Sequence record: PZ789432.1
Reading direction: 5' to 3' (one strand)
Length of the DNA: 44,996 nucleotides
From: a phage
The notes under the pieces were generated by a model. It saw nothing but the letters and a program-made list of their open reading frames with translations. It ran no database searches and was not told where the DNA came from. Below are positions 6,522 through 44,996 of the stretch, in pieces; positions within the stretch are counted from its first letter, which is position 1, and each line of letters opens with the position of its first letter. Position numbers and translations under genes: made by a program.

Positions 6522-6740
6522 ATGGCTAAATACAGAATCAAGACCTGTTTAAATAGTCACGGGCAAGAATTCTACGTAGTGCAACGTAAAGTATTAGGCT
6601 TAATATGGCTCACTTGTATGATGCCTATTGGCTATACTGATACAGAGGCTATCTTCTGCACCGAAAGGGATGCAAAGAAGTTTATCTCTAAGCGTAGAAA
6701 AGCTGACTCTTACCAACCTAGAATTATTAAGGTGAACTAA
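6522..6740 (+). CDS. hypothetical protein (72 aa)
   Basis: ORF track; between gene 1.1-like and primase-helicase. Confidence 0.55.
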   Translation: MAKYRIKTCLNSHGQEFYVVQRKVLGLIWLTCMMPIGYTDTEAIFCTERDAKKFISKRRKADSYQPRIIKVN

Positions 6741-8728
6741 TGGCTATTATTAATAACATCCCGTGCCCTGCCTGTCAAAAGAATGGACATGATATTACTG
6801 GCAACCATCTTATGATATTTGAGGATGGCGCTGGTTACTGTAACCGTGGTCACTTCCATGATAATGGTAAGCCTTATTACCATAAGCCAGAGGGTGGTAT
6901 CGAGATAACCGAATTGCCTATTACTGGCAATATCAAATATACACCTTCTCAATTCAAAGAAATGGAGAAGGAAGGGAAGATAAGCGACCCTAAGCTACGC
7001 GCCATCGCACTTGGTGGTATGCGTATGAAAGATCGTTGGGAGGTCATGAATGAGCAAGAAAGGGCAGACCAAGAAGCAGAGTGGAAGCTTGATGTTGAAT
7101 GGTTCCTCACGCTTAAGCGTAAGAACCTTGTATCCCGTCACATTCGAGGTGACATCGCAGCAATGTACGATGTGCGCGTTGGACACGATGAAGAGGGAAG
7201 AGTCAACCGTCACTATTATCCACGATATGAAAAGGGTGTGCTTGTTGGAGCAAAATGCCGGACGTTGCCGAAGGATTTTAAGTTCGGACACCTAGGTAAA
7301 CTCTTTGGTATGCAAGACCTTTTCGGTATGAACACTTTGTCTCACGTGTTAGACAAGGGGAGACGAAAGGATTGCTTGCTTATTGTAGGCGGTGAACTTG
7401 ATGCACTAGCAGCGCAGCAGATGCTCCTTGATTCTGCCAAGGGTACTAAGTGGGAAGGCCAGCCATACCATGTATGGTCTGTCAACAAAGGCGAGTCTTG
7501 TCTTGAAGAGATAGTGCAAAACCGTGAGCATATCGCCCAATTCAAGAAGATTATATGGGGTTTTGATGGAGATGAGGTAGGGCAGAAGCAGAATCAGCAA
7601 GCGGCTCGCCTGTTTCCTGGCAAATCCTATATCCTTGAATACCCCTCTGGTTGCAAAGATGCTAACAAGGCATTGATGGCTGGCAAGGCTAAAGAGTTTG
7701 TAGATGCATGGTTTAATGCCAAGTCATCTGATGAAGTCTTTGGTAGCCAGATTAAATCTATCGCATCTCAAAGGGATAAGCTCAAGGCTGCACGTCCAGA
7801 GCAAGGACTATCATGGCCTTGGCCTAAGCTGAACAAGGTCACGCTAGGTATTCGTAAGAACCAACTTATCATTGTAGGCGCAGGCTCTGGTGTAGGTAAG
7901 ACTGAGTTCCTTCGTGAAGTAGTTAAGCACCTCATTGAAGAACACGGTGAATCTGTAGGCATCATTTCTACAGAAGACCCGATGGTCAAGGTGTCCCGTG
8001 CTTTTATCGGCAAGTGGATTGATAAGCGCATTGAGTTACCGCCAACCAACGACCCGAAAGAAGATGGATACCGTGAGGTGTTCGACTACACCGAGGAAGA
8101 GGCTAACGCCGCCATTGATTATGTAGCTGATACAGGTAAGCTGTTTGTAGCTGACCTAGAGGGTGACTATTCGATGGAAAAGGTAGAGCAAACTTGCCTA
8201 GAGTTTGAGGCTATGGGCATTTCTAATATCATCATTGATAACTTAACGGGGATTAAATTAGATGAGCGTGCTTTTGGTGGGAAGGTTGGTGCACTTGATG
8301 AATGCGTCAAGCGGATTGGTACTATCAAAGACCGACACCCGGTTACTATATTCCTTGTATCACACCTTACACGTCCTCCGGCAAACCGTACCCAACACGA
8401 AGAAGGTGGCGAGGTTATCCTTTCTGACTTCCGAGGCTCAGGCGCTATCGGATTCTGGGCATCTTACGCCTTGGGGATTGAGCGTAATACAAGAGCTGAA
8501 ACGCTTGACGAAAGGACTACCACGTACATCTCATGTGTCAAAGACCGCGACCAAGGAATATTTTCCGGTACTCGTATAATGCTTAAAGGTGATATTGCTA
8601 CTGGTCGATTACGTGAACCAGAGCAAAGATCTCGACCGTTTGATACTGGTGCTCCAAAAGAACAAACTGTACCAGAAGAAGTAGTGGATAAAGGAGGATT
8701 TATTGCTGACGAAGTTGAAGAGTTTTGA
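6740..8728 (+). CDS. DNA primase/helicase (T7 gp4-like)
   Basis: 662 aa; N-terminal zinc ribbon CPACQ...CNRGH; Walker A VGAGSGVGKTEF; acidic C-terminus ending EEF. Confidence 0.93.
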   Translation: MAIINNIPCPACQKNGHDITGNHLMIFEDGAGYCNRGHFHDNGKPYYHKPEGGIEITELPITGNIKYTPSQFKEMEKEGKISDPKLRAIALGGMRMKDRWEVMNEQERADQEAEWKLDVEWFLTLKRKNLVSRHIRGDIAAMYDVRVGHDEEGRVNRHYYPRYEKGVLVGAKCRTLPKDFKFGHLGKLFGMQDLFGMNTLSHVLDKGRRKDCLLIVGGELDALAAQQMLLDSAKGTKWEGQPYHVWSVNKGESCLEEIVQNREHIAQFKKIIWGFDGDEVGQKQNQQAARLFPGKSYILEYPSGCKDANKALMAGKAKEFVDAWFNAKSSDEVFGSQIKSIASQRDKLKAARPEQGLSWPWPKLNKVTLGIRKNQLIIVGAGSGVGKTEFLREVVKHLIEEHGESVGIISTEDPMVKVSRAFIGKWIDKRIELPPTNDPKEDGYREVFDYTEEEANAAIDYVADTGKLFVADLEGDYSMEKVEQTCLEFEAMGISNIIIDNLTGIKLDERAFGGKVGALDECVKRIGTIKDRHPVTIFLVSHLTRPPANRTQHEEGGEVILSDFRGSGAIGFWASYALGIERNTRAETLDERTTTYISCVKDRDQGIFSGTRIMLKGDIATGRLREPEQRSRPFDTGAPKEQTVPEEVVDKGGFIADEVEEF

Positions 8729-9191
8729 GGCAGCAGGATATACCATCAAGGAGGATGGTACTATCCTTAACCCTAAAGGTGTAATACTTAAACCGAGCCA
8801 ATCAGGAAGGAAATTAAAGTATTTATATGTAAGTTGGAGACATCAAGGAAGAAGAGTAACAGAGCTTGTACACAGATTGGTTGCTAAGAAGTACATACCC
8901 AACCCACACAGTTTACCAGAAATTCATCATAAAGACTTTAACCCTCTTAATTGTCATAAAGACAATCTTGAATGGACAGATGGTAAGACTAATTGTGAGT
9001 ATAGTTATGCAAGGGTAGAAGCTGCACTTGCACGTCATGCTACTTTATTGTCACCTGATGGCATTAAGTACGACATATTTAATGTTCGTAAATTCTGCCG
9101 CGAACATGGCCTCAATCCACCTAGTGTATTTGAGGTGCTTAGTGGTAAACGGAAGTCACATAAAGGGTGGACTATTTACCGGACACTATAG
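8703..9191 (+). CDS. HNH homing endonuclease
   Basis: 162 aa; EIHHKDFNPLNCHKDNLEW HNH motif. No in-frame ATG; starts at TTG 8703 six nt after AAGGAGG, inside the last 26 nt of the helicase gene. Confidence 0.8.
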   Translation: MLTKLKSFEAAGYTIKEDGTILNPKGVILKPSQSGRKLKYLYVSWRHQGRRVTELVHRLVAKKYIPNPHSLPEIHHKDFNPLNCHKDNLEWTDGKTNCEYSYARVEAALARHATLLSPDGIKYDIFNVRKFCREHGLNPPSVFEVLSGKRKSHKGWTIYRTL

Positions 9192-9196
9192 AAGAG
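9174..9196 (+). promoter_or_regulatory. phage RNAP promoter (atttaccggacactatagaagag)
   Basis: Consensus match; +1 G at 9191; overlaps the HNH stop codon. Confidence 0.75.
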
Positions 9197-9225
9197 ACAA
9201 CCTTTGACGATGAACAGGAGTTTTA

Positions 9226-10703: not shown

Positions 10704-10908
10704 ATTAAGCAAGGTTTGCTCTTGCGGTAAAGGCTATCGCAGTCGTATTGATGGTAAGTGTGGACATTGTAGGTCTAAGAAAGAGGCTGCTTTGTTTTAC
10801 AAATACCACAATGAACTCTCCTATAACTACCCTCATCTAACACCTAATTCTTTATTAGGACTTGGTTATAGGGCTAAATACTTTGGAGCAATCTATGAAA
10901 TCAATTGA
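10690..10908 (+). CDS. hypothetical zinc-ribbon protein (72 aa)
   Basis: ORF track 10663..10908; ATG 10690 preferred (GAGG 6 nt upstream); CSCGKG...CGHC motif. Confidence 0.5.
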   Translation: MKTIKLSKVCSCGKGYRSRIDGKCGHCRSKKEAALFYKYHNELSYNYPHLTPNSLLGLGYRAKYFGAIYEIN

Positions 10909-11380
10909 TTGGAAGAAGGAAGCGGAAGGGCGCATCCTAGTTATGGACGCCGAGGCGAAAGGTCTACTTGATGCTATACGCTATGGTCATCGTGAAGACG
11001 TGCATATCATCTGCTGTATGGACCTGTTGACTACAGAGGAGTTTCTCTTCTTCGACCCGTATGAGATGCGTGACCCTGAAGCAAGAGAACGCCTGAAGGA
11101 ATGGGAAGGTCATCAAGATGGTGACTTGGTTGATGGTGTTAACTTCCTGAAGCATTGTGAAGCTATTGTGTCACAGAACTTCCTAGGGTATGACGGACTT
11201 CTCTTTGAGAAAGCATTCCCTGATATTTGGAAGGGCTTTAACTATACCGAGAAGCGCGGTAAGGGCAGACTCCGTGCTGACCTGTGTCCGGTGCGAGTCA
11301 TGGATACGCTGGTGATGAGTCGCCTGTTAAACCCAGATAAGACGCCTTCCTCCGCAAGCATATGCCAAAGGTATGGGTAA
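10895..11380 (+). CDS. DNA polymerase (Pol I family), fragment 1 of 4: 3'-5' exonuclease domain; frame-disrupted
   Basis: ORF track 10862..11380 (TTG), first ATG 10895; Exo motifs ILVMDAEAKGL and NFLGYDGLLFEKAF; VMDTLVMSRLL parallels T7 gp5 CIDTLVLSRLI. Homology continues in another frame. Confidence 0.85.
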   Translation: MKSIDWKKEAEGRILVMDAEAKGLLDAIRYGHREDVHIICCMDLLTTEEFLFFDPYEMRDPEARERLKEWEGHQDGDLVDGVNFLKHCEAIVSQNFLGYDGLLFEKAFPDIWKGFNYTEKRGKGRLRADLCPVRVMDTLVMSRLLNPDKTPSSASICQRYG

Positions 11381-11786
11381 CGTCGCCCCTCACTCAATTG
11401 AGGCGCACGGCATCCGTATAGGCCGCTATAAACCGGAGAACGAGGACTGGTCTAAACTAACTGACCACATGGTTCACCGTGTACGTGAGGACGTGGCGAT
11501 TGGTCGTGACTTGTTCCTCTGGCTCTTTAACGGGGAATGGATGGAGCATAAACGCCGTGGCGTGAATAAACGCACGGGCCTAGGCATTGAGACAGCCTTC
11601 CACATGGAGTCCATTGTGGCGCTGGAGATGAGCCGTCAGGCCGAGCGGGGGTTCCGTCTGGACATCGACAAGGCTTTGGCCCGATGCGAAGAATTGGACG
11701 CTAAGATTGATGAGACAGTCGCAGCGTTCCGCCCTCACATGCCTATGCGTATCAAGTCTAAACCTTTTAAACCGGAAGAAAAGTAA
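11373..11786 (+). CDS. DNA polymerase, fragment 2 of 4; frame-disrupted
   Basis: HSIEAHGIRIGRYK parallels T7 gp5 HALEAWGYRLGEMK; the frame is open upstream from 11331, so the shift lies near 11335..11372. Confidence 0.8.
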   Translation: MGNVAPHSIEAHGIRIGRYKPENEDWSKLTDHMVHRVREDVAIGRDLFLWLFNGEWMEHKRRGVNKRTGLGIETAFHMESIVALEMSRQAERGFRLDIDKALARCEELDAKIDETVAAFRPHMPMRIKSKPFKPEEK

Positions 11787-12445
11787 TGAAGTATGCCAAC
11801 GCGCAAATGAGTATGGAGCTAGCAACAATATACCTACTGTCCTTGACCCCTCACACTTTCTTCATGCCGAGAGACGAGGAGATCGCAAGACAGTATGGAG
11901 AGCTTGTCACTACTAAGTCTGGTGATTGGTCGGCTAGTGTTAAGAAAGACTTTCCTCACCTTAGAGGAAACCGTAATGACACGCCAAGCATCAAGTGGAT
12001 TGGCGCTTACTCGCCTGTTACTTTCGAAGAGATTCCCTTGGGTAACAGGGATACAGTTAAGCAAGTGCTCTATGATTATGGATGGAAAGGTGTTGAATTT
12101 AACGATACCGAGCAAGCGCATCTCGATGAGTACGGAGTGTTACCCAAACCTTGGAGTGGTAAGATAAATGAAAAGTCCCTCACTTTATGGCAAGAAAGAG
12201 CCGCACGTGAAGGTAAAACAGTACCTGATTGGTGCTTGGGTATCGCTGCATGGTACATACTCGTATCCCGTCGTGGTCAGATACTCAACCGTGGTGACGT
12301 TGAAGCCTTCAACGAGAAGGGGAACGTGGCCCTCGCAGGCTGGTGTACGAAAGTGTCGCGGCCTTGTACCTGTAGCATTCAACAAGGAGCTAGGAATCAA
12401 TGCGCAGCAATACTACGAGAGGTACGGATGTTGGCCTACGTCTGA
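11786..12445 (+). CDS. DNA polymerase, fragment 3 of 4; frame-disrupted
   Basis: Back in the frame of fragment 1; polymerase-like over its N-terminal two thirds. Confidence 0.7.
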   Translation: MKYANAQMSMELATIYLLSLTPHTFFMPRDEEIARQYGELVTTKSGDWSASVKKDFPHLRGNRNDTPSIKWIGAYSPVTFEEIPLGNRDTVKQVLYDYGWKGVEFNDTEQAHLDEYGVLPKPWSGKINEKSLTLWQERAAREGKTVPDWCLGIAAWYILVSRRGQILNRGDVEAFNEKGNVALAGWCTKVSRPCTCSIQQGARNQCAAILREVRMLAYV

Positions 12446-13448
12446 CAAAGATGACGGAGAGTGGCGTGTTCCAGCTGTTGCTATTAGTATTGGCACTTCT
12501 ACGTTCCGTATGCGTCATCGTAACGTGGTTAATATTCCTGCCCGTGGCTTGTATCCTTTACGTGATTTATTCATAGCAGGGAAAGGCAAGCTAATCCTTG
12601 GTTGTGACGGTGCAGGTCTTGAACTGCGTGTCCTGTCTCACTTCATGAATGACCCTGAGTACCAAGAGATTGTACTGCACGGTGATATTCATACGCATAA
12701 CCAGATGAAGGCTGGTCTTCCTAAGCGTGATATGGCGAAGACGTTTATATACGCCTTCCTCTATGGTTCTGGTATAGCCAACCTTGCAGCAGTCTGCGGT
12801 GTTACTGAGGAAGAAATGAAGGAAGTTGTGGCAAGATTCGAGATTGAACTACCGTCTCTTGCACGTCTTCGTGAGAATGTTATCGCACAAGGTAACAAGT
12901 TTGGCTACCTGCAAGCACCTGATGGGCATTGGGGTCGCATCCGCATGTCTGGTGGTGAACTTAAAGAGCACACGATGCTTAACGTATTACTCCAGATGAC
13001 TGGCTCTTTGTGTATGAAATATGCATTAGTCAAGGCATTTGCAGTAATGCGCAAGGAAGGTGTAGCTTTGGATGCTATGGGAAATCCTTGTGGTGTGGCT
13101 AACGTGCATGATGAAATCCAGATGGAAGTTCCTGAAGAGGAGGTCTTGTATCTTAACTACGACCTACCTTTCACCTTAGATGGGTTCGAAACAGAGAAGG
13201 CTGCTGTGAAAGCAGTTTTCGATGCAGAGGAGAAACGTGTTCATGTGGATTCTGAAGGACGTATGTGGTCTGCTGCAAACCTCGTTAGCGTTGATGCTGA
13301 TGCTGGTGTATTGCATTGCCAGCGCCGTTATCACCGTGCAGGTCATATCATTGCCGACGCCATGACTTGGGCAGGGCAGTATCTGAAGATGCGTTGCCCG
13401 ATGGCAGGAGAATATAAGATTGGCGCAAGCTGGAAGGAAACACACTGA
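12168..13448 (+). CDS. DNA polymerase, fragment 4 of 4: palm/fingers; frame-disrupted
   Basis: Motif A GCDGAGLELRVLSHF, TSTFRMRHRNVVNIP (T7 TGRATHAFPNLAQIP), KTFIYAFLYG, VHDEIQ. Reliable homology starts near 12430; the first ~260 nt of this ORF overlap fragment 3. Confidence 0.85.
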   Translation: MKSPSLYGKKEPHVKVKQYLIGAWVSLHGTYSYPVVVRYSTVVTLKPSTRRGTWPSQAGVRKCRGLVPVAFNKELGINAQQYYERYGCWPTSDKDDGEWRVPAVAISIGTSTFRMRHRNVVNIPARGLYPLRDLFIAGKGKLILGCDGAGLELRVLSHFMNDPEYQEIVLHGDIHTHNQMKAGLPKRDMAKTFIYAFLYGSGIANLAAVCGVTEEEMKEVVARFEIELPSLARLRENVIAQGNKFGYLQAPDGHWGRIRMSGGELKEHTMLNVLLQMTGSLCMKYALVKAFAVMRKEGVALDAMGNPCGVANVHDEIQMEVPEEEVLYLNYDLPFTLDGFETEKAAVKAVFDAEEKRVHVDSEGRMWSAANLVSVDADAGVLHCQRRYHRAGHIIADAMTWAGQYLKMRCPMAGEYKIGASWKETH

Positions 13449-28476: not shown

Positions 28477-29198
28477 TGGCTATAGGTTCAGCCGTTATGG
28501 CTGGTATGTCTTCTATTGGTAGTATGTTTGCAGGCAGTGGTGCAGCAGCCGCTGCTGGAGGTGCTGCCGCAGGTGGCGGAGGCTTGCTAGGTTCTCTAGG
28601 TGGCTTCCTAAGCGGCTCTACTGCTGGCTTCTCTAATGCTGGGCTTCTTGGTGCTGGCCTTCAAGGTTTAGGCTTGATTGGTGATCTCTTTGGTGGAAGT
28701 GATGAAGCCAAGGCAATGAAGAAAGCACAAGAAGAACAGTGGCGGCAGCAACTTATTGCTACACAAGAAGCATACAAAACAGTAGCAGATGCAGAGCGTT
28801 CTGCTGCTAAACAATATCATGCAGATGCAATAAGCAATCAGGCTTCACTACTACAGCAGCGAGCACAGGTTGCATTACTAGCAGGTGCTACTGGTACTGG
28901 TGGTAACTCTGTAACTTCTATGCTGAATGACTTAGCAGCAGAGGGCGGGAGGAACCAGAGTACAATTATTGATAACTATGAGAATCAGAAGATTAACTTC
29001 ACCAATCAGCTTAAGTCTATCCAGCGAGGTGGACAGATGCAGATGCGTGAGTTTAAGAAGCCTTCTGCCGTGAGCACCTTGGTGCAAGGTATACCGAGTC
29101 TGGCATCTGCCTATGTAACAGGTAGTAAGTCCGGCATGGCTTTAGGTAAAGCTTTAACTGATTCTCGTACATATTCATCTGGAACAAGAGGTATTTAA
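28476..29198 (+). CDS. internal virion protein (Gly/Ala-rich)
   Basis: ORF track 28437..29198; ATG 28476 after AAGGAGG; Gly/Ala-rich N-terminal segment. Confidence 0.7.
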   Translation: MAIGSAVMAGMSSIGSMFAGSGAAAAAGGAAAGGGGLLGSLGGFLSGSTAGFSNAGLLGAGLQGLGLIGDLFGGSDEAKAMKKAQEEQWRQQLIATQEAYKTVADAERSAAKQYHADAISNQASLLQQRAQVALLAGATGTGGNSVTSMLNDLAAEGGRNQSTIIDNYENQKINFTNQLKSIQRGGQMQMREFKKPSAVSTLVQGIPSLASAYVTGSKSGMALGKALTDSRTYSSGTRGI

Positions 29199-32146
29199 TG
29201 GCAATTGAGCGACAAGCAGTACAAGGTCTGCCACAAGTGCAGGCCACTTCTCCTAATGTCATGACCTTTGCACCTCAGCGAGTTGGAGGTGTGGAGGCTG
29301 GCGTAGCTTCTACCTCCGGTAGTCGATTTATCGAAGACCTTATTCGAGCAGCCAGTAGTGTAGCTGATGTAACCACTGGTATCCTTAATCAAAAGATTGA
29401 GGAAGATAAGGTTGTTCAAATGGAACGGGCATATAACGGATTAATGCCTTCTGAGGATGCAACTCGTGGTGGCGCTCGTGCTAACATGCTTGTCAAAGCT
29501 CAACTGCTAGCTAATGATGAAGCAGCACGAATGAAAGACATGGCTACTCGTTTCCAAGGGACGGATGACGAGTGGACACAACTTATGGTTGACTCTCGTA
29601 ATGAGATGCAGAATAAGCTGTTCCAGCAATACCCTGAGTTGCAAGGTGACAAAGATACTATGCGTATGGTCACTAATGTCTTCCAAGAACAGCAGCCTCA
29701 GATTTGGGCGACACGAACCCAGCATAAACTTGACCGTGAACAAGCAGACCGTGAGGATACCTTTGACGGGCGAGTGGCTTCTACTTGGGATTCTAATATT
29801 GACCCTGAAGCATCTGGCTATGCTTTACAGGAACGAATCCGCGAAGGTCTTACTCAAGGATTACTACCTGAACAGATGCACAAGAAGTTAGTCCAGCGAG
29901 CAATTTCACTTGCACAAGGCGGTGATGTTAGCATGGCTGAAGCCCTGAAGTATGTGAAGGACGATAAGGGTGTTTCTGTTTATGCTAAGAATCCACAGCT
30001 TATCACAGCCATCACTAGTGGTAATGCAGTTTGGGCTAGGAATAATGTAGCTGATGTAACTCGTATGTCTTTCGAAGTTAAAGAATCATACCTTGCAGGT
30101 GATTTAACTGATGAAGAATTGTTGGAACGAGCACAGCACATTAATAATCTGACAGGTAACTATGTCTTCTCTAATCCAGAACTAGAGGCACTGATGCGCC
30201 AACGGGCTAAGCAGAATGCAGAGCTAGGTGCAATGCAGGATATGCGACGTGAGCTTTACTCCGACCGCCTGACTGGCTTCCAAGGTAAGACTGATAAAGA
30301 GAAGAAGGCTTACATTGATGTTATCAAACAGGATAGCCAACTTTATGCAGACCAGCAAATCAAACAACGTGGCTTGGACCCTTACAGTCAAGAGGCTGAA
30401 GCTATTCGTGGTGCAGTGGAAGTGCAGCGCCTGCAATTCATGAACTCCAAAGGCTTAGTGGATGATACCTTTGAGTCTCGTATCAAAGCCATGGAATCTA
30501 TGCTATCGCCTGAGCACTTTGCCAAGGGCGAACCACAGGAGTTGATGACTATTCGCCAGTTGTGGGAACAGTTGCCAGAAGAGAGCCGAGGTGTCTTTGG
30601 TGACACGGTTAATGGCTACATGGATAACTACAACACTGCACTACAAATGGGAGAGACACCTTTGCAGGCTGCAAGGTTTGCGCGTGAAGCACAGCAGAAA
30701 TTCTCTCGTACTGAGAAGGAAACCAAGAAGTTCAACTCAGCTATTGGAGATGCACTGGATGAGGTATCTGGTGCTGGCTGGTTTGATGGTAAAACCGAAG
30801 TGTCAGACTTAGGTAAAGCTATTGCGGAAGAAGAGTTACGAGCTAAGGCCAATATGTTGTGGTCTAGTGGTATGCGTAACATGGATTCTATCAAGAAGGC
30901 TTTAATTACTTGGGGCAATAAACGCTACACTCAAACAGAGGATGCAAAGACTTCCGGTGGCTATTTCATTAAAGGTGATTACACTTCTGCATCTGATATG
31001 CTTATGTCAGTTGGGAAAGGCGTAAACCCTACCGATGTACCTCTGGCGCTTGGTAGGTATGTAGAAACACAGATGCCAGAATTGAAGAAGGAGCTTCAAG
31101 AGTGGGAAACTAAAGATGATATATACATTGATTACAATGAACAGAAAGGTACTTTCGTGATTCGTGCTGGTGCAGCAGGTCGCCCTCTTTCTGGAGTAAT
31201 CCCTGTAACCTCTTTAGATACCACTTCACTACTAGATTCTGCCTATCAGAAGAAAGTAGAGGAACGAGATAAAGGCGAGTATGTTCACCCTTATCGTACA
31301 GATATTGGTGCACAAGAGCCTATGCCAGCTAAACCCACTGCCAAAGATATTGGTAAATTTGGACTAGCTAACTTCCTCATGTCTTCTGCTTTTGCTTCTG
31401 GTGAGAATCTGCCTTCTAACTTCGAGATTAACTATCGAGGTAATATGCAACAATTCTATGACAAGCTAGCTATGGATGAGAATAAAGATAAAGTTGGCTT
31501 TAATAAGGCAACTGGAACCTTTACTCCATATAAAGATGCTCACGGTGAGTCTATCGGTTACGGTCATTTCTTAACGGAAGAAGAGAAGCGAAACGGGTAT
31601 ATTAAGATTGGTGATGAACTAGTTCCCTATCGAGGGTCTATGTCTCAGCTTACAGAGAGCAAGGCTCGCGCTCTTATGGAGCAAGATGCCAAGAAGCATG
31701 TGCCTCCTACTCGTGACTGGAAGATTCCGTTTGACCAGATGCATCCTGCACAGCAACGTGGCTTGATGGATTTAACCTACAATTTAGGTAAAGGTGGAAT
31801 CCAGAACTCACCGCGTGCTCTTGCTGCATTCAAAGCTGGTAAGCTTACGGAAGGCTTTATCGAAATGCTGGGCACTGCATCAAGTGAAGGTAAACGTATT
31901 CCGGGCCTACTGAAGCGACGCGCTGAGGCATACAATATGGCAGCTGCTGGTGGTGTACCTAAGATCACAGAAGTGGAGACGAGGGAAGATGGCTCTATGT
32001 GGGTTAAGTTTGGTGGACCTATGCCAGCAGGCTCTATTTCTGCGTGGACGCATAAACGTATTGGAGCCGATGGCTGGTATCAGGTTTATGAGGCTGCACC
32101 TACCAAGTTAGCTAAAGACTCTAAGGTAGGTAAAGTTAAATTGTAG
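29198..32146 (+). CDS. internal virion protein with C-terminal lysozyme-like domain
   Basis: 982 aa; C-terminal region (~31400..31950) ...GESIGYGHFLTEEEK...LMDLTYNLGKGG... resembles T4-lysozyme-type muramidases. Confidence 0.75.
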   Translation: MAIERQAVQGLPQVQATSPNVMTFAPQRVGGVEAGVASTSGSRFIEDLIRAASSVADVTTGILNQKIEEDKVVQMERAYNGLMPSEDATRGGARANMLVKAQLLANDEAARMKDMATRFQGTDDEWTQLMVDSRNEMQNKLFQQYPELQGDKDTMRMVTNVFQEQQPQIWATRTQHKLDREQADREDTFDGRVASTWDSNIDPEASGYALQERIREGLTQGLLPEQMHKKLVQRAISLAQGGDVSMAEALKYVKDDKGVSVYAKNPQLITAITSGNAVWARNNVADVTRMSFEVKESYLAGDLTDEELLERAQHINNLTGNYVFSNPELEALMRQRAKQNAELGAMQDMRRELYSDRLTGFQGKTDKEKKAYIDVIKQDSQLYADQQIKQRGLDPYSQEAEAIRGAVEVQRLQFMNSKGLVDDTFESRIKAMESMLSPEHFAKGEPQELMTIRQLWEQLPEESRGVFGDTVNGYMDNYNTALQMGETPLQAARFAREAQQKFSRTEKETKKFNSAIGDALDEVSGAGWFDGKTEVSDLGKAIAEEELRAKANMLWSSGMRNMDSIKKALITWGNKRYTQTEDAKTSGGYFIKGDYTSASDMLMSVGKGVNPTDVPLALGRYVETQMPELKKELQEWETKDDIYIDYNEQKGTFVIRAGAAGRPLSGVIPVTSLDTTSLLDSAYQKKVEERDKGEYVHPYRTDIGAQEPMPAKPTAKDIGKFGLANFLMSSAFASGENLPSNFEINYRGNMQQFYDKLAMDENKDKVGFNKATGTFTPYKDAHGESIGYGHFLTEEEKRNGYIKIGDELVPYRGSMSQLTESKARALMEQDAKKHVPPTRDWKIPFDQMHPAQQRGLMDLTYNLGKGGIQNSPRALAAFKAGKLTEGFIEMLGTASSEGKRIPGLLKRRAEAYNMAAAGGVPKITEVETREDGSMWVKFGGPMPAGSISAWTHKRIGADGWYQVYEAAPTKLAKDSKVGKVKL

Positions 32147-35534: not shown

Positions 35535-36497
35535 TGAGTTATACTTTCACAGAACATATAGCCAACGGTACGCAAGTAACCTATCCCTTTAGCTTTGCTG
35601 GTAGGGATAAAGGTTATCTTCGTGCCTCAGATGTGATAGTGGAGATCTCTTCAAGGTAACACTTGGATTGAGGTTACATCTGGCTGGCAACTAACTGGCA
35701 CGCACCAGATTACTTTTGATGTAGCACCAGTTGCAGGTTTGAAGTTCCGTATTCGAAGGGAAGTACAAAAGGAGTATCCATACGCTGAGTTTGACCGTGG
35801 TGTTACCTTGGATATGAAGTCTTTAAATGGTTCTTTCATTCATATACTGGAGATTACACAGGAGTTACTTGACGGGTTTTATCCAGAAGGATACTTCATT
35901 AAACAGAATGTAAGCTGGGGCGGCAATAAGATTACTGATTTGGCTGATGGCACAAATCCGGGAGATGCAGTAAACAAAGGGCAGCTTGATGCCATTGACA
36001 AGAAGCATACAGATTGGAATGCCAAACAGGACATTGAGATTGCTGGCCTTAAGGCTGGTATGACTTCTGGTATTGCGCACAGAACTGTTCCTTGGTACAC
36101 GATAGCCCAAGGTGGTGAGATTTCCGTAAAACCACCTTATGAATTTCAAGATGCACTAGTTTTCCTTAATGGGGTATTGCAGCACCAAATTGTAGGCGCA
36201 TACTCTATAAGCAACAACACTATCACTTTCGCAGAGTCGCTTGTGGCGGGTACAGAGGTGTATGTGCTGATTGGTAGTCGTGTGGCTACATCTGAACCTA
36301 ATATTCAGTTAGAGTTGAACTTTGACTTAGTAGAAGGCCAACAAGTAGTACAGATTGGCTCTGCATTTAAGTACATTGAGGTCTACCTTGATGGATTATT
36401 ACAACCTAAACTTGCTTATCAGGTAGACGGTGACATTGTTACTTTCTCAGAGGGAGTGCCAGAATGCCGGATGACTGCTAAGATTATCACAGCATAA
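35534..36497 (+). CDS. tail fiber/tailspike adaptor (T7 gp17 N-terminal-domain-like); frame-disrupted
   Basis: ATG 35534 gives MSYTFTEHIANGTQVTYPFSFAGRDKGYLRASDVIVEISSR* (ends 35659). Homology continues in another frame from ~35640 (NTWIEVTSGWQLTG...; ORF track 35739..36497). One indel near 35648..35656 restores ~321 aa. Confidence 0.7.
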
Positions 36498-36506
36498 GGA
36501 GGTAGG

Positions 36507-36701
36507 ATGATTAACTCCGAACTGGTAGATAGTGGTGTGAAGCTTGCGCCACCTGCACTCGTATCAGGTGGGTACTTCCTCGGTATCAGTTGGGATAATT
36601 GGGTGTTAATAGCAACATTCATTTATACCGTGTTGCAAATTGGGGACTGGTTTTATAATAAGTTCAAGATTTGGAGGGAGAAGCGTGAGCGTACACAATA
36701 A
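36507..36701 (+). CDS. holin (T7 gp17.5-like)
   Basis: 64 aa; SD AAGGAGG; TM segment and WVLIATFIYTVLQIGDWFYNKFKIWREK paralleling T7 gp17.5 AAIAYTVVQIGAKVVDKMIDWKK. Confidence 0.65.
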   Translation: MINSELVDSGVKLAPPALVSGGYFLGISWDNWVLIATFIYTVLQIGDWFYNKFKIWREKRERTQ

Positions 36702-36984: not shown

Positions 36985-38882
36985 TGGCTAAGGCAAGAGA
37001 ATCACAAGCGGAGGCTCTTGCCAGATGGGAGATGCTACAGGAGTTACAGCAGACCTTTCCTTACACAGCGGAAGGTTTGCTTCTCTTTGCAGATACAGTT
37101 ATTCATAACTTAATTGCAGGCAACCCTCATCTGATTCGTATGCAGGCTGATATCTTGAAGTTCCTATTTTACGGACACAAGTACCGCCTCATCGAAGCGC
37201 CTCGTGGTATCGCTAAGACAACACTATCAGCAATCTATACGGTATTCCGTATTATTCATGAACCGCATAAGCGTATCATGGTTGTGTCCCAAAACGCCAA
37301 GCGAGCAGAGGAAATCGCAGGTTGGGTAGTTAAAATCTTCCGTGGCTTAGACTTTCTTGAGTTTATGCTGCCGGATATCTACGCTGGGGACCGTGCATCC
37401 GTTAAGGCGTTTGAGATTCATTACACCCTACGTGGTAGTGATAAGTCTCCTTCTGTATCCTGTTACTCAATCGAAGCAGGTATGCAGGGTGCTCGTGCTG
37501 ATATTATTCTAGCGGATGACGTAGAGTCGATGCAGAATGCTCGTACGGCAGCGGGCCGTGCCTTGCTTGAGGAACTGACTAAGGAGTTTGAATCTATCAA
37601 CCAGTTTGGGGATATCATTTACCTTGGTACACCTCAGAACGTAAACTCTATCTACAACAACCTACCTGCTCGTGGTTACTCTGTTCGTATCTGGACTGCG
37701 CGTTACCCTTCAGTAGAGCAAGAGCAATGTTATGGCGACTTCCTTGCACCTATGATTGTTCAAGATATGAAGGACAACCCAGCACTTCGCTCAGGGTACG
37801 GGTTGGATGGTAATAGTGGTGCACCTTGTGCCCCTGAAATGTATGATGATGAAGTCCTGATTGAGAAGGAAATCTCTCAGGGTGCTGCTAAGTTCCAGCT
37901 TCAGTTCATGCTTAACACTCGCATGATGGATGCTGACAGATACCCATTACGCCTGAACAATCTAATCTTCACCTCGTTTGGTACAGAGGAAGTCCCTGTG
38001 ATGCCTACGTGGAGTAATGATTCCATAAACATCATTGGTGATGCACCTAAGTATGGTAACAAGCCTACGGATTTCATGTACAGACCTGTAGCTCGCCCAT
38101 ACGAATGGGGTGCTGTCTCCCGCAAGATTATGTATATTGACCCTGCGGGTGGCGGTAAGAATGGGGATGAGACGGGTGTGGCTATCGTATTCCTGCACGG
38201 CACATTCATTTACGTGTATCAGTGCTTCGGTGTGCCGGGTGGATACCGCGAATCGTCCCTGAATCGCATTGTGCAGGCCGCAAAGCAGGCGGGTGTTAAA
38301 GAGGTATTCATTGAGAAGAACTTTGGTCATGGCGCGTTTGAGGCGGTAATTAAGCCGTACTTTGAACGAGAGTGGCCTGTAACTCTGGAAGAGGATTACG
38401 CCACCGGACAGAAAGAATTGCGTATCATTGAGACGCTGGAGCCGCTCATGGCAGCCCATAGGCTTATCTTCAATGCAGAAATGGTGAAGTCAGACTTTGA
38501 GTCGGTACAGCACTATCCGCTTGAACTACGCATGTCCTACAGTCTTTTCAATCAAATGTCGAACATAACGATTGAGAAGAACAGCCTCCGGCACGATGAC
38601 CGCCTAGACGCCCTGTATGGCGCTATACGGCAATTAACTTCTCAGATAGACTATGACGAGGTTACACGGATTAATCGCCTCAGAGCGCAGGAGATGCGAG
38701 ATTACATCCATGCTATGAACACACCTCATCTACGCAGGGCAATGCTATATGGGGATTACGGTACTGAGCGAAGAGTGACCAACACTTCCGTAGCGATGCA
38801 GCAGCGAGTTTACGGGCAGAACTACCGAAATAAATCGGCAAGCAGAAATACACTTTCTGCAAGGATTTCAAGGACTTATTAA
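36984..38882 (+). CDS. terminase large subunit
   Basis: 633 aa (ORF track 36981, ATG 36984); position and size as T7 gp19; acidic nuclease-type segments in C-terminal half. Confidence 0.9.
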   Translation: MAKARESQAEALARWEMLQELQQTFPYTAEGLLLFADTVIHNLIAGNPHLIRMQADILKFLFYGHKYRLIEAPRGIAKTTLSAIYTVFRIIHEPHKRIMVVSQNAKRAEEIAGWVVKIFRGLDFLEFMLPDIYAGDRASVKAFEIHYTLRGSDKSPSVSCYSIEAGMQGARADIILADDVESMQNARTAAGRALLEELTKEFESINQFGDIIYLGTPQNVNSIYNNLPARGYSVRIWTARYPSVEQEQCYGDFLAPMIVQDMKDNPALRSGYGLDGNSGAPCAPEMYDDEVLIEKEISQGAAKFQLQFMLNTRMMDADRYPLRLNNLIFTSFGTEEVPVMPTWSNDSINIIGDAPKYGNKPTDFMYRPVARPYEWGAVSRKIMYIDPAGGGKNGDETGVAIVFLHGTFIYVYQCFGVPGGYRESSLNRIVQAAKQAGVKEVFIEKNFGHGAFEAVIKPYFEREWPVTLEEDYATGQKELRIIETLEPLMAAHRLIFNAEMVKSDFESVQHYPLELRMSYSLFNQMSNITIEKNSLRHDDRLDALYGAIRQLTSQIDYDEVTRINRLRAQEMRDYIHAMNTPHLRRAMLYGDYGTERRVTNTSVAMQQRVYGQNYRNKSASRNTLSARISRTY

Positions 38883-38902
38883 TTACTGGACACTATAGAA
38901 GG
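38880..38902 (+). promoter_or_regulatory. phage RNAP promoter (ttaattactggacactatagaagg)
   Basis: Consensus; +1 G at 38897; followed by AT-rich motifs shared with 6226..6270 and hairpin gggtgtac-tcct-gtacaccc. Confidence 0.75.
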
Positions 38903-39037
38903 AAGGCCCAGATAATAAGAGAAAATAATAGGTAATATATAGGTTAACCTAGGTTATATAGGTATGCCTTAGTATGGGTGTACTCCTGTACACCCTATTC
39001 CTTACTACCTTACTATATTTACATAATAGGAGAGACA

Positions 39038-39316
39038 ATGGCTAATGATTATAGTAGTCAACCATTAACAGGTAAGTCTAAGAGAAAGCAGGTACAACCT
39101 GTAAGTGAAGAACTAATGCTTCCGGTAATCAAAAAAGAGGAAGCTAGTAAGAAAAACAATGCTATTAATGATGCCACCAAATCAGGTAAACAGAAAGGGG
39201 CCATGGTGTGCCTTGAAGTGGAAGGTGGTGTATTGAAGATTGCTATCGCGGTTGATGGCAAAGAAGATTCAGAGTGGAAGTTAGTAACAGTGGAACCAGT
39301 TGTTAACCCAGTTTAA
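39038..39316 (+). CDS. hypothetical protein (92 aa), paralog A of a tandem pair
   Basis: ORF track 38978..39316 (GTG); ATG 39038 after AGGAG; shares SGKQKGAMV.LE...L.IA.A motif with the next ORF. Confidence 0.65.
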   Translation: MANDYSSQPLTGKSKRKQVQPVSEELMLPVIKKEEASKKNNAINDATKSGKQKGAMVCLEVEGGVLKIAIAVDGKEDSEWKLVTVEPVVNPV

Positions 39317-39334: not shown

Positions 39335-39628
39335 ATGGCTAAATATGGTACTAAAGGTTCTGTTACGGGTCAGGCTTTTCGAGTGAAAGCAGTACAAACT
39401 ATTGCAACGGCAATCCCGATGCCTGTTGTTAAAGAAGTAGACCTTAAGAGTAAAGATCACCCTATCAACATCAAACATTTATCAGGTAAACAGAAAGGTG
39501 CAATGGTTGCTCTTGAGAAAAGTGACACAACCTTACATATTGCTGTTGCACGTGGTAGTGAACCAACAGACCCTTGGGATGTAACTGGCATGGACTCGCT
39601 CGCTGTCACTCCAGCAGGTGGAGAATAA
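39335..39628 (+). CDS. hypothetical protein (97 aa), paralog B of a tandem pair
   Basis: ORF track; SD AAGGAGG; LSGKQKGAMVALEKSDTTLHIAVARG parallels KSGKQKGAMVCLEVEGGVLKIAIAVDG upstream. Confidence 0.7.
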   Translation: MAKYGTKGSVTGQAFRVKAVQTIATAIPMPVVKEVDLKSKDHPINIKHLSGKQKGAMVALEKSDTTLHIAVARGSEPTDPWDVTGMDSLAVTPAGGE

Positions 39629-39985
39629 TGCTTAACAAATACTTCAAGCGCCGTGAGTTCGCTTGCCGTTGTGGGTGCGGTACATCCACTGTTGATGCTG
39701 AATTACTACAGGTAGTCACAGATGTGCGTGAGCACTTTGGTTCGTACCTGTAGTAATCACTTCGGGGCATCGCTGTGCTAAGCACAATGCCAACGTAGGA
39801 GGAGCTAAGAAGGTTCCATGCATCTTACTGGTAAGGCTGCTGACATTAAGGTATCTAGGTGTCTGGTACCAATCGGAGGTACGTACAGTACCTCTGCTAA
39901 TAAATACCCTGATAAGTATGGCATTGGTGCTTATACCTACTTTTACCCATATCGACGTTACGAGACAACGAGTGCACGATGGTAA
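39628..39985 (+). pseudogene. endolysin, zinc peptidase M15-type, with about four frame disruptions in this sequence
   Basis: Successive frames give MLNKYFKRREFACRCGCG...VREHFGS / PVVITSGHRCAKHNANVGGAKK / SMHLTGKAADIKV...GIGAYTY / FTHIDV / ...SARW*, together the M15 hallmark. Each break is at a short G or T run. Confidence 0.75.
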
Positions 39986-40094
39986 GATGTGTTGAATGGT
40001 GTGAACGCATGGTTGCCAAAGCATCCAGAGGATGGCAACTATGATGACTGGAAGAACTACTCTGAATTGTTAGCTCAATGGAAAGGGAGATGCA

Positions 40095-40190
40095 ATGAAA
40101 AAGCTGTTTAAGTCTAAGAAGGTTGTAGGTGCACTGGTTGCACTGGTTATTGCACTTGTTTCTGTAGGTCTTGGCGTAGACCTTGGCTGA
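40095..40190 (+). CDS. hypothetical small membrane protein (31 aa)
   Basis: ATG 40095 after AAGGGAG; MKKLFKSKKVVGALVALVIALVSVGLGVDLG. Confidence 0.35.
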   Translation: MKKLFKSKKVVGALVALVIALVSVGLGVDLG

Positions 40191-40324
40191 AGGTACGGAA
40201 GGTTCCTGTCACTGACGTGGTCTGCCAAGTGATCACCTGTGAATAAGGTGCTTGAAGTGGTGGCAGGTCTTATTGGCCTGCTGCTTGCCGCTAAGAAGAA
40301 GCAAGGAAGAAAAGGAGGCACAAA

Positions 40325-40426
40325 GTGAAGCGAATCATGCTAGCGACAATCCTGCTGATTGGTTCGCTGACCACTTCCGGGTGTCAGACAGGCGTTACCA
40401 GAGAGTCCAATGGTGAAACCGTCTGA
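40325..40426 (+). CDS. small lipoprotein-like ORF (candidate o-spanin-like)
   Basis: GTG 40325 six nt after AGGAGG (or ATG 40337); MLATILLIGSLTTSGCQTG has a signal peptide with lipobox-like TSGC. No intact i-spanin ORF is visible. Confidence 0.35.
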   Translation: MKRIMLATILLIGSLTTSGCQTGVTRESNGETV

Positions 40427-40564
40427 AGCCGACGCTGACGGCAGTTTACGAGGTAGACGATAAGGTCTGCTTCAGTAAGCCTGACGCTACAAAATTAGGT
40501 TTGTATATTCTTTCGCTAGAACGCGGATATAATTAATACATAGCTTTATGTATCAGTGTCTTAC

Positions 40565-40588: not shown

Positions 40589-40667
40589 GTAAGATAGCGC
40601 CGTTCTTTTGAGCGGCCTATTACTAGCCAATCTTCATAGGGAGGGTTGGAAAGTAATAGGAGATAGC

Positions 40668-41792
40668 ATGGCTAAATTAACCAAACCTAAGACTGAAGGA
40701 ATCTTGCATAAAGGACAATCTTTGTATGAGTACCTTGATGCGAGAGTTTTAACATCAAAGCCGTTTGGTGCTGCAGGTGACGCCACTACTGATGATACGG
40801 AGGTTATAGCTGCTTCACTAAACTCTCAAAAAGCTGTCACAGTCTCAGATGGTGTATTCTCTAGCTCTGGTATTAATAGTAATTACTGTAACTTAGACGG
40901 CAGGGGTAGTGGAGTACTAAGTCACCGTTCAAGTACAGGTAACTACTTAGTATTTAACAATCTACGTGCAGGTCGCTTAAGTAATATTACGGTAGAAAGT
41001 AATAAGGCGACTGATACAACTCGGGGACAGCAGGTATCTCTTGCTGGTGGAAGTGATGTTACTGTAAGTGACGTTAACTTCTCAAACGTTAAAGGTACTG
41101 GTTTCAGTTTAATAGCATACCCTAATGGTGCGCCACCTAATGGGCTTATGATTAAAGGTATTCGAGGTAGCTACTCCGGCTATGCTACTAATAAGGCAGC
41201 CGGATGCGTACTTGCTGACTCCTCAGTTAACTCCCTAATAGATAACGTCATTGCTAAGAACTACCCTCAGTTCGGAGCCGTAGAGTTGAAAGGTACAGCC
41301 AGTTATAACATAGTCAGTAATGTTATAGGGACAGATTGCCAGCATGTAACTTACAACGGCACTGAAGGGCCAATAGCTCCTTCTAATAACCTTATCAAGG
41401 GTGTGATGGCTAATAACCCTAAGTATGCAGCGGTTGTTGCAGGCAAAGGAAGTACGAACTTAATCTCAGACGTGCTCGTAGATTACTCAACTTCTGATGC
41501 TAGGCAGGCTCATGGTGTTACCGTAGAGGGGTCTGATACCGTCATAAATAATGTGCTTATGTCAGGATGTGATGGTACTAACTCTTTAGGACAAAGTCAG
41601 ACTGCTACAATTGCGCGCTTTATAGGTACAGCTAATAACAACTATGCGTCTGTATTTCCTAGCTACAGTGCTACAGGTGTTATTACTTTCGAATCCGGCT
41701 CTACCCGTAACTTCGTAGAGGTAAAGCACCCTGGCAGGAGAAATGACCTTCTCAGTTCTGCTAGTACTATTGACAGGTGCAGCTACTATTGA
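40668..41792 (+). CDS. tailspike 1 (beta-helix polysaccharide depolymerase, K5-lyase-like), N-terminal fragment; frame-disrupted
   Basis: ORF track 40608..41792 (TTG); ATG 40668 after AGGAG; beta-helix-like repeats; frame lost near 41775. Confidence 0.8.
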   Translation: MAKLTKPKTEGILHKGQSLYEYLDARVLTSKPFGAAGDATTDDTEVIAASLNSQKAVTVSDGVFSSSGINSNYCNLDGRGSGVLSHRSSTGNYLVFNNLRAGRLSNITVESNKATDTTRGQQVSLAGGSDVTVSDVNFSNVKGTGFSLIAYPNGAPPNGLMIKGIRGSYSGYATNKAAGCVLADSSVNSLIDNVIAKNYPQFGAVELKGTASYNIVSNVIGTDCQHVTYNGTEGPIAPSNNLIKGVMANNPKYAAVVAGKGSTNLISDVLVDYSTSDARQAHGVTVEGSDTVINNVLMSGCDGTNSLGQSQTATIARFIGTANNNYASVFPSYSATGVITFESGSTRNFVEVKHPGRRNDLLSSASTIDRCSYY

Positions 41793-42567
41793 TGGCACTA
41801 ATAATAGTAACGTAGTGCACGCACCTGCCTTAGGGCAGTACATCGGTAGTATGTCAGGTAGGTTCGAATGGCGGATTAAGTCCATGTCACTCCCTTCAGG
41901 CGTTCTTACTTCTGCTGATAAGTACAGAATGCTTGGGGATGGTGCTGTGTCATTAGCTGTAGGTGGGGGCACTTCTTCTCAAGTTCGCCTATTTACTTCT
42001 GATGGTACTTCTCGGACAGTGTCCCTCACCAACGGTAACGTGCGTCTTTCTACCAGTAGCGCAGGCTATTTGCAGTTAGGTGCTGATGCAATGACCCCAG
42101 ATAGTACTGGTACATACGCATTAGGTTCCGCCAGTCGAGCATGGTCTGGCGGTTTTACTCAAGCAGCATTCACTGTTACCTCAGATGCTCGGTGTAAAAC
42201 AGAACCTCTTACTATCTCAGATGCCTTACTGGATGCTTGGTCTGAAGTTGACTTTGTGCAGTTTCAGTATTTGGATCGTGTTGAGGAGAAAGGTGCAGAC
42301 TCAGCTAGATGGCACTTTGGCATCATCGCTCAGCGAGCTAAGGAGGCTTTCGAACGTCACGGTATAGATGCACATCGCTACGGCTTCTTGTGCTTCGACA
42401 GTTGGGAGGATGTATACGAGGAAGATGCAAATGGCTCTCGTAAACTGATTACACCAGCAGGTTCCCGCTATGGTATTCGTTACGAGGAAGTACTGATATT
42501 AGAGGCTGCGTTGATGCGGCGGACTATTAAGCGTATGCAGGAAGCACTAGTTGCCATTCCTAAGTAA
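41743..42567 (+). CDS. tailspike 1, C-terminal fragment with intramolecular chaperone (peptidase S74-like) domain; frame-disrupted
   Basis: C-terminus ...DARCKTEPLTISDALLDAWSEVDFVQFQYLD...ARWHFGIIAQ...YGFLCFD... parallels the autocleaving chaperone domain of K1F endosialidase (...GERKTEPVVFDDAFLDAWGDV...ARIHFGVIAQ...YAVLCYD). Joined length ~633 aa. Confidence 0.8.
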   Translation: MTFSVLLVLLTGAATIDGTNNSNVVHAPALGQYIGSMSGRFEWRIKSMSLPSGVLTSADKYRMLGDGAVSLAVGGGTSSQVRLFTSDGTSRTVSLTNGNVRLSTSSAGYLQLGADAMTPDSTGTYALGSASRAWSGGFTQAAFTVTSDARCKTEPLTISDALLDAWSEVDFVQFQYLDRVEEKGADSARWHFGIIAQRAKEAFERHGIDAHRYGFLCFDSWEDVYEEDANGSRKLITPAGSRYGIRYEEVLILEAALMRRTIKRMQEALVAIPK

Positions 42568-42573
42568 GCAACA

Positions 42574-42596
42574 GGCAGTGCGTAAGCACTGCTTTT
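42574..42596 (+). terminator. hairpin + U-run terminator after tailspike 1
   Basis: ggcagtgc-gtaa-gcactgc followed by TTTT. Confidence 0.55.
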
Positions 42597-42652
42597 CACG
42601 CAACTTTTCTTAAAGGTTATCATGGTGGTAGCCTTTCAGAAAAGGAGGTTAC

Positions 42653-44365
42653 ATGCTTCAAAGATTAAGTGCTTACTTGGTGAAGTACAAGAGTAAACTA
42701 ACAGGTACTATTGAGCGCCTGCTATCTGATAAACTATCGGATACAATAGACGTTGCGGATTTTGGAGTTAATCCCTCTTCTAATGACAACAGGCAAGCCC
42801 TTCAAGCTGCATTCAATGCGGTCAGATTGCTAGGCGGTGGTACTGTATCAGTCACTAAAGCTGGCGAATATAAACTCAGTGGTACTGTTGAGATATTTGC
42901 TAATACACACTTCAAGGTTGCTAAAGGTGTAACATTTGTACGTGACTACGAAACAGGAGATACGCTATTCAGATTATCACAAGGGCAAGCTAGTAATGTA
43001 ACAGTCAGTGGAGGTATCTATGAAGGCAATGGTCACACTAAGGGAGATACACCTTTTGTAGTATTTGCATCTACTAGTAATAATGATTTGAAGTTTGAAG
43101 GCATAACAGTTAACAATGTAGTGGACTACCACGCCATAGATTTAGCAGATTGGAACAACGTAGTTATTCGTGATTGTAAATTCCTAGGGTTTAAGAATAC
43201 AGGCAGTCGTAACTTCTCAGAGGCTATACAGTTAGACCCAGGTCTTATTACAGTTGGTCACTATGTACAGTCAAGCGGTATGCTGGTGGAGAATTGCTAT
43301 GCTGGTCCAAACCCAGAATCAGGGTTTGGGGGTTATGGTGCACTAATCGGAAATCACGCCTCAGCTTATGGTGTACAGGACAACAATATCCGTATCTTGA
43401 ATTGCACTACAGATGGTGCTCTCTTTGCAGGTGTACGTGTATTTAACTGGAAAAACTGGACAGTACGTGGTTGTACCTTTAGAAACTCTAATGCAAGAGG
43501 TGTTCATGTTACACCTGTCTCCTCTCAAACTAAACCGCAAGGAACTCGACAAGGTAGTGTTGTAGATTGTACTTTTGATGGCGTAAGAACACCAGTGCTA
43601 ATTGCTGCACCATCTTGGCCTTTTACAGATATTAGTGACATTTGGCATGACCATATTGAAATTTCTAATAATACTATGATCCTCACAGAGGATGTATCCT
43701 ATGGTGTAGATGCAAGGTGGTGTAAGAATTTAATTGTAAAAGGTAACACTGGTTCTGGCGGCTTAGGGTTAATCGGTTTACGCTTTGGAACAAAGTACCA
43801 CATCGAAGGTAATACTTGGGAAAACGGAAGAGGTAGTGGGATTTGGTTAGGTGAGTCTGATGCTACTACATTCATTGGTACTGGCTTATCTGGAGAAGGT
43901 ATACTTAGTCGTAATATCCTCTCTAAATTAGGGCAATATGGTATTCATGTAAACTGCAAGGCTGGCGGTCTAGTGATTAAAGCTAATAATATGAAGGAAG
44001 TATCTACAGCTGAAGCAGGTAGGCACTTCATTAGCATAGACACAGGAGCTAACAACATCCTAGTAGAAGGTAATATTGGAGTAGATGGAGAAAGCCCTAA
44101 CAAGCCAAGCTTGGGTATTCGTGTTACTTCTTCTTGTTCCAATATTAAACTCATTGGCAATGATTGCTATGGTACACAGGCGCCTCAGAATAACCAAGGG
44201 GTTGGTTCTAGTACGGTGATTGTTTATGGACTAAATGGCAATCCTACAACTTTAGGCGTAGGTGCACCTGTTGGCTCTTTAGCAACTGATATCAATGGGT
44301 CTGGTGGTAGTACATTGTACGTTAAAGAATCTGGTACATCTGCTCAAGGTTGGGTTGCAAAGTAG
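42653..44365 (+). CDS. tailspike 2 (pectate-lyase-fold beta-helix depolymerase)
   Basis: 570 aa; SD AAGGAGG; N-terminal DVADFGVNPSSNDNRQALQAAFNA...GGGTV typical of pectate-lyase-type tailspikes, followed by beta-helix-like repeats. Confidence 0.85.
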   Translation: MLQRLSAYLVKYKSKLTGTIERLLSDKLSDTIDVADFGVNPSSNDNRQALQAAFNAVRLLGGGTVSVTKAGEYKLSGTVEIFANTHFKVAKGVTFVRDYETGDTLFRLSQGQASNVTVSGGIYEGNGHTKGDTPFVVFASTSNNDLKFEGITVNNVVDYHAIDLADWNNVVIRDCKFLGFKNTGSRNFSEAIQLDPGLITVGHYVQSSGMLVENCYAGPNPESGFGGYGALIGNHASAYGVQDNNIRILNCTTDGALFAGVRVFNWKNWTVRGCTFRNSNARGVHVTPVSSQTKPQGTRQGSVVDCTFDGVRTPVLIAAPSWPFTDISDIWHDHIEISNNTMILTEDVSYGVDARWCKNLIVKGNTGSGGLGLIGLRFGTKYHIEGNTWENGRGSGIWLGESDATTFIGTGLSGEGILSRNILSKLGQYGIHVNCKAGGLVIKANNMKEVSTAEAGRHFISIDTGANNILVEGNIGVDGESPNKPSLGIRVTSSCSNIKLIGNDCYGTQAPQNNQGVGSSTVIVYGLNGNPTTLGVGAPVGSLATDINGSGGSTLYVKESGTSAQGWVAK

Positions 44366-44741: not shown

Positions 44742-44996
44742 GCCCTCGCCGGGTTGCCCCCATATGGGGTAGATCGGCGGTTGACCTAGGAATTGGGCTG
44801 GGCTGGTCCGTCTTCGACGGGTGGGCGAGGGCTTGCCGAGGTCTGCTCTTAGTGGCTGCACAAGGAGAACGCCTAGGAAGCGCTAGGGCACGCCTTAGTA
44901 TTGGACAAGGTGATTGCCTTAGTGAAGCCTCTTAGTGCATTCCTTAGGTCATTCAGGGCGTTTATGAGGGATTGACAGGGTGGATGGGTGTGGGCT
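44742..44996. repeat. right direct terminal repeat
   Basis: Same orientation copy of 1..257; preceded by extra ctcgccctcgccctcgcc units that the truncated left copy does not show. Confidence 0.85.

Follow-up and report, generated by a model that had tools for sequence, protein, structure and literature searches.

Between positions 39628 and 39985 of the phage genome in sequence record PZ789432.1, all the hallmarks of an M15-type peptidase endolysin can be read, spread over successive reading frames. This raises the question of whether the endolysin of this phage is truly decaying or whether its frame breaks were introduced by base calling or assembly. To answer it, the locus was compared base by base with the corresponding genes of related phages, and the comparison was extended to the whole genome.

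Genome and relatives

The window, meaning the whole stretch of 44,996 nt that was analysed, is the complete genome of a K1-5-like podophage (genus Vectrevirus, Molineuxvirinae), a phage of E. coli. An exact direct terminal repeat of 245 nt (1-245 = 44742-44986), G + C-rich relative to the genome, indicates that the window represents the full-length linear genome. From this repeat we infer that the DNA was packaged DNA of a replication-competent phage, and not a genome with as many gene breaks as are described below. Nearly full-length matches at approximately 95-97% identity were obtained with Sem2, Sem3, KMB47, VEc3 and related records, and the gene order of the window is that of VEc3 and K1-5.

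The endolysin was aligned globally with those of VEc3, T145P2 and K1-5. Together with 24 IMG/VR loci (77-95% protein identity), these three make up the 27 endolysin relatives examined. For the genome as a whole, an indel was counted as private to the window when it was seen against all of VEc3, Sem2 and KMB47, using position-tolerant clustering of BLAST alignments. No exact protein match was found for gp48, gp49, the second tailspike or the corrected endolysin, and no second independent assembly of the same phage came to light. Literature on endolysin frameshifts in Vectrevirus was also searched for, and nothing relevant was found.

The two small genes at 39038-39316 and 39335-39628 are adjacent paralogues with approximately 37% mutual identity, and both contain the motif SGKQKGAMV. 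Their homologues are labelled 'acetyl-CoA acetyltransferase' in RefSeq, a label that looks doubtful for proteins of 92-97 aa.

The endolysin gene as written

The endolysin starts at an ATG at 39628, overlapping the stop of the upstream gene, and ends with the TAA at 39985. Three-frame translation between these bounds confirmed that the M15 motifs follow each other in different frames, as had been noted in the sequence-only reading. The frame of 39628 encodes MLNKYFKRREFACRCGCGTSTVDAELLQVVTDVREHFGS, which includes EFACRCGCG. The second frame encodes ITSGHRCAKHNANVGGAKK, VVITSGHRCAKHNANVGGAKK and PTFTHIDV (with FTHIDV), and the third encodes SMHLTGKAADIKVS, SMHLTGKAADI, KYPDKYGIGAY (with GIGAY) and SARW (with ARW), the last followed by the stop. 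The whole M15 domain is present in no single ORF; the ORF pieces are 59, 55 and 25 aa long. Against Pfam PF08291, a 41-aa N-terminal fragment scored 23.4 bits and the 55-aa C-terminal ORF gave no match.

Each of the three global alignments gave the same result: 13 bases were inserted in 12 events and none was deleted (Table 1). The sequence-only reading had counted about four frame breaks, all at short homopolymers. That count overlooked the six events of the densest run. Several insertions compensate each other over short distances, so that a reader who follows the motifs counts fewer frame switches than there are. The placement at homopolymers was also incorrect. None of the inserted bases lies within a run of three or more identical bases, and 11 of the 13 are unlike both neighbours, on which ground homopolymer errors were rejected as the explanation. 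At cTTTTac, where one of the breaks had been placed, the run is identical in VEc3 and the actual extra base is the A at 39935.

Table 1 Positions of the endolysin, its inserted bases and the other genes with frame breaks in the window
Feature	Position	Strand	Observation
Endolysin gene (Peptidase_M15_3)	39628..39985	+	358 nt as written, 345 nt (114 codons) in all relatives; 13 inserted bases, very probably spurious (alignments; PF08291)
Inserted G (39744) and A (39746)	39744..39746	+	TTCGTACC, against TTC-T-CC in relatives; first frame break
Inserted GG	39812..39813	+	AGAAGGTTCC, against AGAA--CTCC in relatives
Densest run, six single-base insertions in 42 nt	39857..39898	+	39857 A, 39863 C, 39867 T, 39874 C, 39888 G, 39898 T (alignments)
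Three further single-base insertions	39935..39970	+	39935 A, 39961 C, 39970 G (alignments)
Whole error cluster	39744..40421	.	19 inserted and 0 deleted bases in 678 bp (global alignments)
Small ORF, homologue of VEc3 gp51	39979..40117	+	Overlaps endolysin stop; broken by inserted A at 40023
49-aa membrane protein gene ('holin' in RefSeq records of relatives)	40095..40246	+	Broken by insertions at ~40188 and ~40206
i-spanin-like gene, homologue of KMB47 CDS 39366-39587	40239..40463	+	Split across frames by insertions at ~40304, 40388 and 40421
Rz-like, o-spanin-like gene	40325..40536	+	Contains LTTSGC; overlaps i-spanin-like gene; broken by 40388 and 40421, restored on their removal
DNA polymerase	10895-13445		Four frame breaks: 11339, 11784, 11901 (4-nt AGCT insertion), 12319
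Exonuclease			Broken at 17005
Scaffold			Broken at 23711
Tail-fibre adaptor (tail adaptor)			Broken at 35644
K5-lyase-like tailspike	40608-42567		Split at 41775 by single inserted A into ORFs 40608-41792 and 41743-42567

The corrected endolysin

Deletion of the 13 bases yielded an intact ORF of 114 codons, and 111 of the 114 amino acids were identical to the VEc3 endolysin (YP_009796115.1, 'endolysin; peptidase M15'). The three differences are A84T, H91P and K111S, and P91 is also found in T145P2. A single uninterrupted ORF of about 114 codons is therefore lacking only from the endolysin as written; it is present in the window minus the 13 bases and in 27 of the 27 relatives examined, none of which has the extra bases.

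Compared to VEc3, 17 codons of the corrected endolysin differ, 14 of them synonymously and 3 non-synonymously (P ~1e-6 for at least 14 of 17 under neutrality). The alignment to relatives showed no nonsense change among the substitutions, and no deletions. The 49-aa membrane protein, once corrected, matches that of T145P2 at every residue (100% identity), and the two genes differ by 8 synonymous and 0 non-synonymous changes. If 25% of changes are expected to be synonymous, the excess in the two genes has P values of 1e-6 to 6e-11. At the codon level these comparisons show strong purifying selection on both genes once the inserted bases are removed.

In the search against Pfam PF08291 (Peptidase_M15_3), the corrected protein scored 115.1 bits (cut-off 23.2) and covered profile positions 1-108 of 108. 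In the M15/LAS family, the residues of an H-x6-D stretch and a distal H serve as zinc ligands. H64-x6-D71 is present in SMHLTGKAAD, and the distal H104 lies within FTHID, a motif kept in 27 of 27 relatives; as written, H64/D71 and H104 are in different frames. The zinc D-Ala-D-Ala carboxypeptidase of Streptomyces albus (PDB 1LBU) is more distant, and its H-x6-D zinc-binding stretch aligns with the window endolysin (NSMHLTGKAAD with NSRHMYGHAAD of 1lbu_A). 1LBU carries an N-terminal peptidoglycan-binding domain, whereas the window endolysin is a small single-domain phage protein.

The endolysins of VEc3 and K1-5 (YP_654144.1) also have 114 codons, and the motifs EFACRCGCG, SGHRC, SMHLTGKAAD and FTHID are common to all. 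They occupy the same genome position as in the window, between the gp48/gp49 pair, which they follow directly, and the spanin cassette. This is the conserved place in the Vectrevirus late region, upstream of the spanin genes and the tailspike. The gene underneath the frame breaks is, by prediction, a standard Peptidase_M15_3 endolysin of the SP6/K1-5 type, the biology of which is already known. Judged from its family membership, the enzyme would act as a zinc peptidase: once the membrane has been opened by the T7-type holin, it would cleave the peptide stems of peptidoglycan. The gene of this holin (36507-36701) is intact.

Extent of the error cluster

The region had been said to hold frame errors at a higher density than anywhere else in the genome, which proved correct: 14 of the 29 window-private indel events fall within 678 bp, where 0.24 would be expected (Poisson P ~2e-20). 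The errors had been described for the endolysin (39628-39985). They reach beyond it, to 40421, with six more single-base insertions downstream of the endolysin, and four more genes of the lysis cassette are broken (Table 1). The density of the cluster is approximately 1 extra base per 36 nt, with a peak of 1 per 7 nt at 39857-39898. Its span of about 680 nt is approximately that of one Sanger read. Upstream, between 39000 and 39743, no indel was found within a gene against both relatives, the sole shared indel (39029) being intergenic. A composition anomaly was sought as a reason for the location of the cluster and none was found; the base composition of the region is ordinary.

Indels in the rest of the genome

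The 29 window-private indels comprise 28 insertions and 1 deletion (binomial P ~1e-7). Outside the cluster, the protein sequence flanking each break on both sides is approximately 93-100% identical to relatives. In the DNA polymerase, the breaks are grouped in a second cluster of the same insertion errors, less dense than the first. In T7-like phages DNA polymerase, scaffold, tail adaptor and tailspike are essential, and an obligately lytic phage cannot lose them. Four breaks in the DNA polymerase, together with those in scaffold and adaptor, would preclude replication or assembly, so the sequence as written cannot be the virus's own.

In the gene of the large internal virion protein, two insertions 22 nt apart, at 33715 (+1) and 33737 (+2), compensate each other, leaving the ORF open with about seven codons scrambled.

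The record of Escherichia phage vB_Eco_Sem2 (PV775413.1), with 96.9% identity to the window, has its scaffold, major capsid, tail-tube and internal virion genes each annotated in pieces. Unlike that of the window, the Sem2 endolysin is intact (CDS 38635-38979, 345 nt). Which genes are split differs between the window and Sem2, a pattern that random technical errors would produce. The split annotation suggests that the Sem2 record contains the same kind of uncorrected indel errors, and that the artefact may recur in the records of this group.

At the 3' end of the primase/helicase gene (6740-8728), a free-standing HNH endonuclease ORF of 162 aa is present (8703-9191). The last 16 helicase codons of the relatives recur past this ORF, at 9176-9223, and the helicase ORF of the window has a different tail. 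The arrangement resembles the insertion of a homing endonuclease accompanied by duplication of the gene end. The second tailspike (42653-44365, 570 aa) has no counterpart in the second tail protein of VEc3, and its length is that of Sem2 CDS 41640-43352. Receptor-binding modules are swapped among genomes that are otherwise 97% identical.

Alternative explanations

The given sequence does contain the frame breaks, and a second muralytic domain is intact in the genome: the lysozyme-like domain that the sequence-only reading had attributed to the internal virion protein (29198-32146) was confirmed (Phage_lysozyme, residues 776-910). The endolysin and the rest of the lysis cassette could accordingly be in true decay, lysis having passed to another enzyme such as this one. 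We consider this very unlikely. Neutral decay predicts a dN/dS near 1 with substitutions spread over the codon positions, whereas the ratios of synonymous to non-synonymous changes (14:3 in the endolysin and 8:0 in the 49-aa gene) point to purifying selection. It also predicts mixed lesions in one dispensable gene. Instead, deletions and nonsense substitutions are absent from the cluster, insertions are almost the only lesion (19 against 0 deletions in the cluster, 28 against 1 genome-wide), five overlapping lysis genes are broken at once, and the same lesions occur in the DNA polymerase, scaffold, tail adaptor and tailspike. The take-over of the endolysin role was not supported either. All 27 relatives keep the endolysin intact and also carry the internal virion lysozyme; the protein of the window is 99% identical to that of VEc3, the endolysin of which is likewise intact. 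Because the internal virion protein is equally conserved in relatives that keep the endolysin, there is no hint of a hand-over of function. In T7-like phages, internal virion proteins with a lysozyme domain act during DNA entry, and not in lysis. Even less probable is that the insertions are real and belong to a defective Vectrevirus genome, with frameshifted lysis, replication and structural genes, that hitch-hiked in the same lysate and was complemented by a co-infecting intact phage.

Expression of the endolysin by programmed recoding, through ribosomal frameshifting or transcriptional slippage, has nothing in its favour beyond the presence of frame changes, and its probability is negligible. 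Twelve events would be needed in 345 nt, at bases that mostly differ from both neighbours and never lie in a run of three or more. No slippery sequence kept in the relatives and no two-frame coding was found for the endolysin; in the relatives, the same protein is read from a single frame that lacks such sites, and these intact single-frame orthologues effectively refute recoding. An origin as the consensus of a mixed sample, which would still be an artefact, is unlikely. In that case VEc3-type and K1-5-type Vectrevirus alleles would have been merged, with both bases left at polymorphic codons. By eye, several inserted bases do lie in codons that are polymorphic among relatives (for example TCGTA, against TCT or GTA). 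With the inserted base internal to a 7-mer, 3 of the 13 were found in other alleles against 5.7% expected (P ~0.035), a weak excess. However, a looser k-mer test 'explained' random insertions as often (approximately 57%, against 62-69% observed), and for several insertions, among them those at 39812-13, 39970 and 40023, no allele offers a counterpart. Moreover, the alleles differ by substitutions only, so that merging them need not add bases.

Conclusions

The frame breaks of the endolysin are very probably a base-calling or assembly artefact of some kind and not a feature of the phage DNA, a judgement that rests on comparison with related sequences. A technical error is indicated because the lesions are insertions only, mostly outside homopolymers, lie over sequence under strong purifying selection, break genes essential in T7-like phages as well and are absent from relatives. 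The spurious extra bases would stem from a low-quality stretch of about 680 bp (39744-40421) in the assembled or deposited genome, and the same insertion-only type of error occurs more sparsely across the genome. Of the earlier suggestion of a low-coverage or homopolymer-prone stretch, the error-prone, low-quality part was upheld; the homopolymer part was not. Random insertion-dominated errors outside homopolymers are typical of poor overlapping read tails and of an unpolished consensus from insertion-prone long reads, and either may be the technical cause here. Beneath the errors, the real gene would be a normal endolysin of 345 nt and 114 codons in the usual lysis cassette, made up of the endolysin, the small ORF, the 49-aa membrane protein and the i- and o-spanin-like genes.

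The multiply frameshifted endolysin is not a real feature, and the locus holds nothing new beyond the need of this genome for polishing. If the genome were annotated as it is, the endolysin, the four other genes of the lysis cassette, the DNA polymerase, the exonuclease, the scaffold, the tail adaptor and the K5-lyase-like tailspike would be missed or truncated. Left uncorrected, the record could give rise to erroneous database entries labelled 'pseudogene' or 'novel small ORF'. The main import of the finding concerns data quality: the record has to be polished or resequenced before comparative or therapeutic-phage work can build on it.
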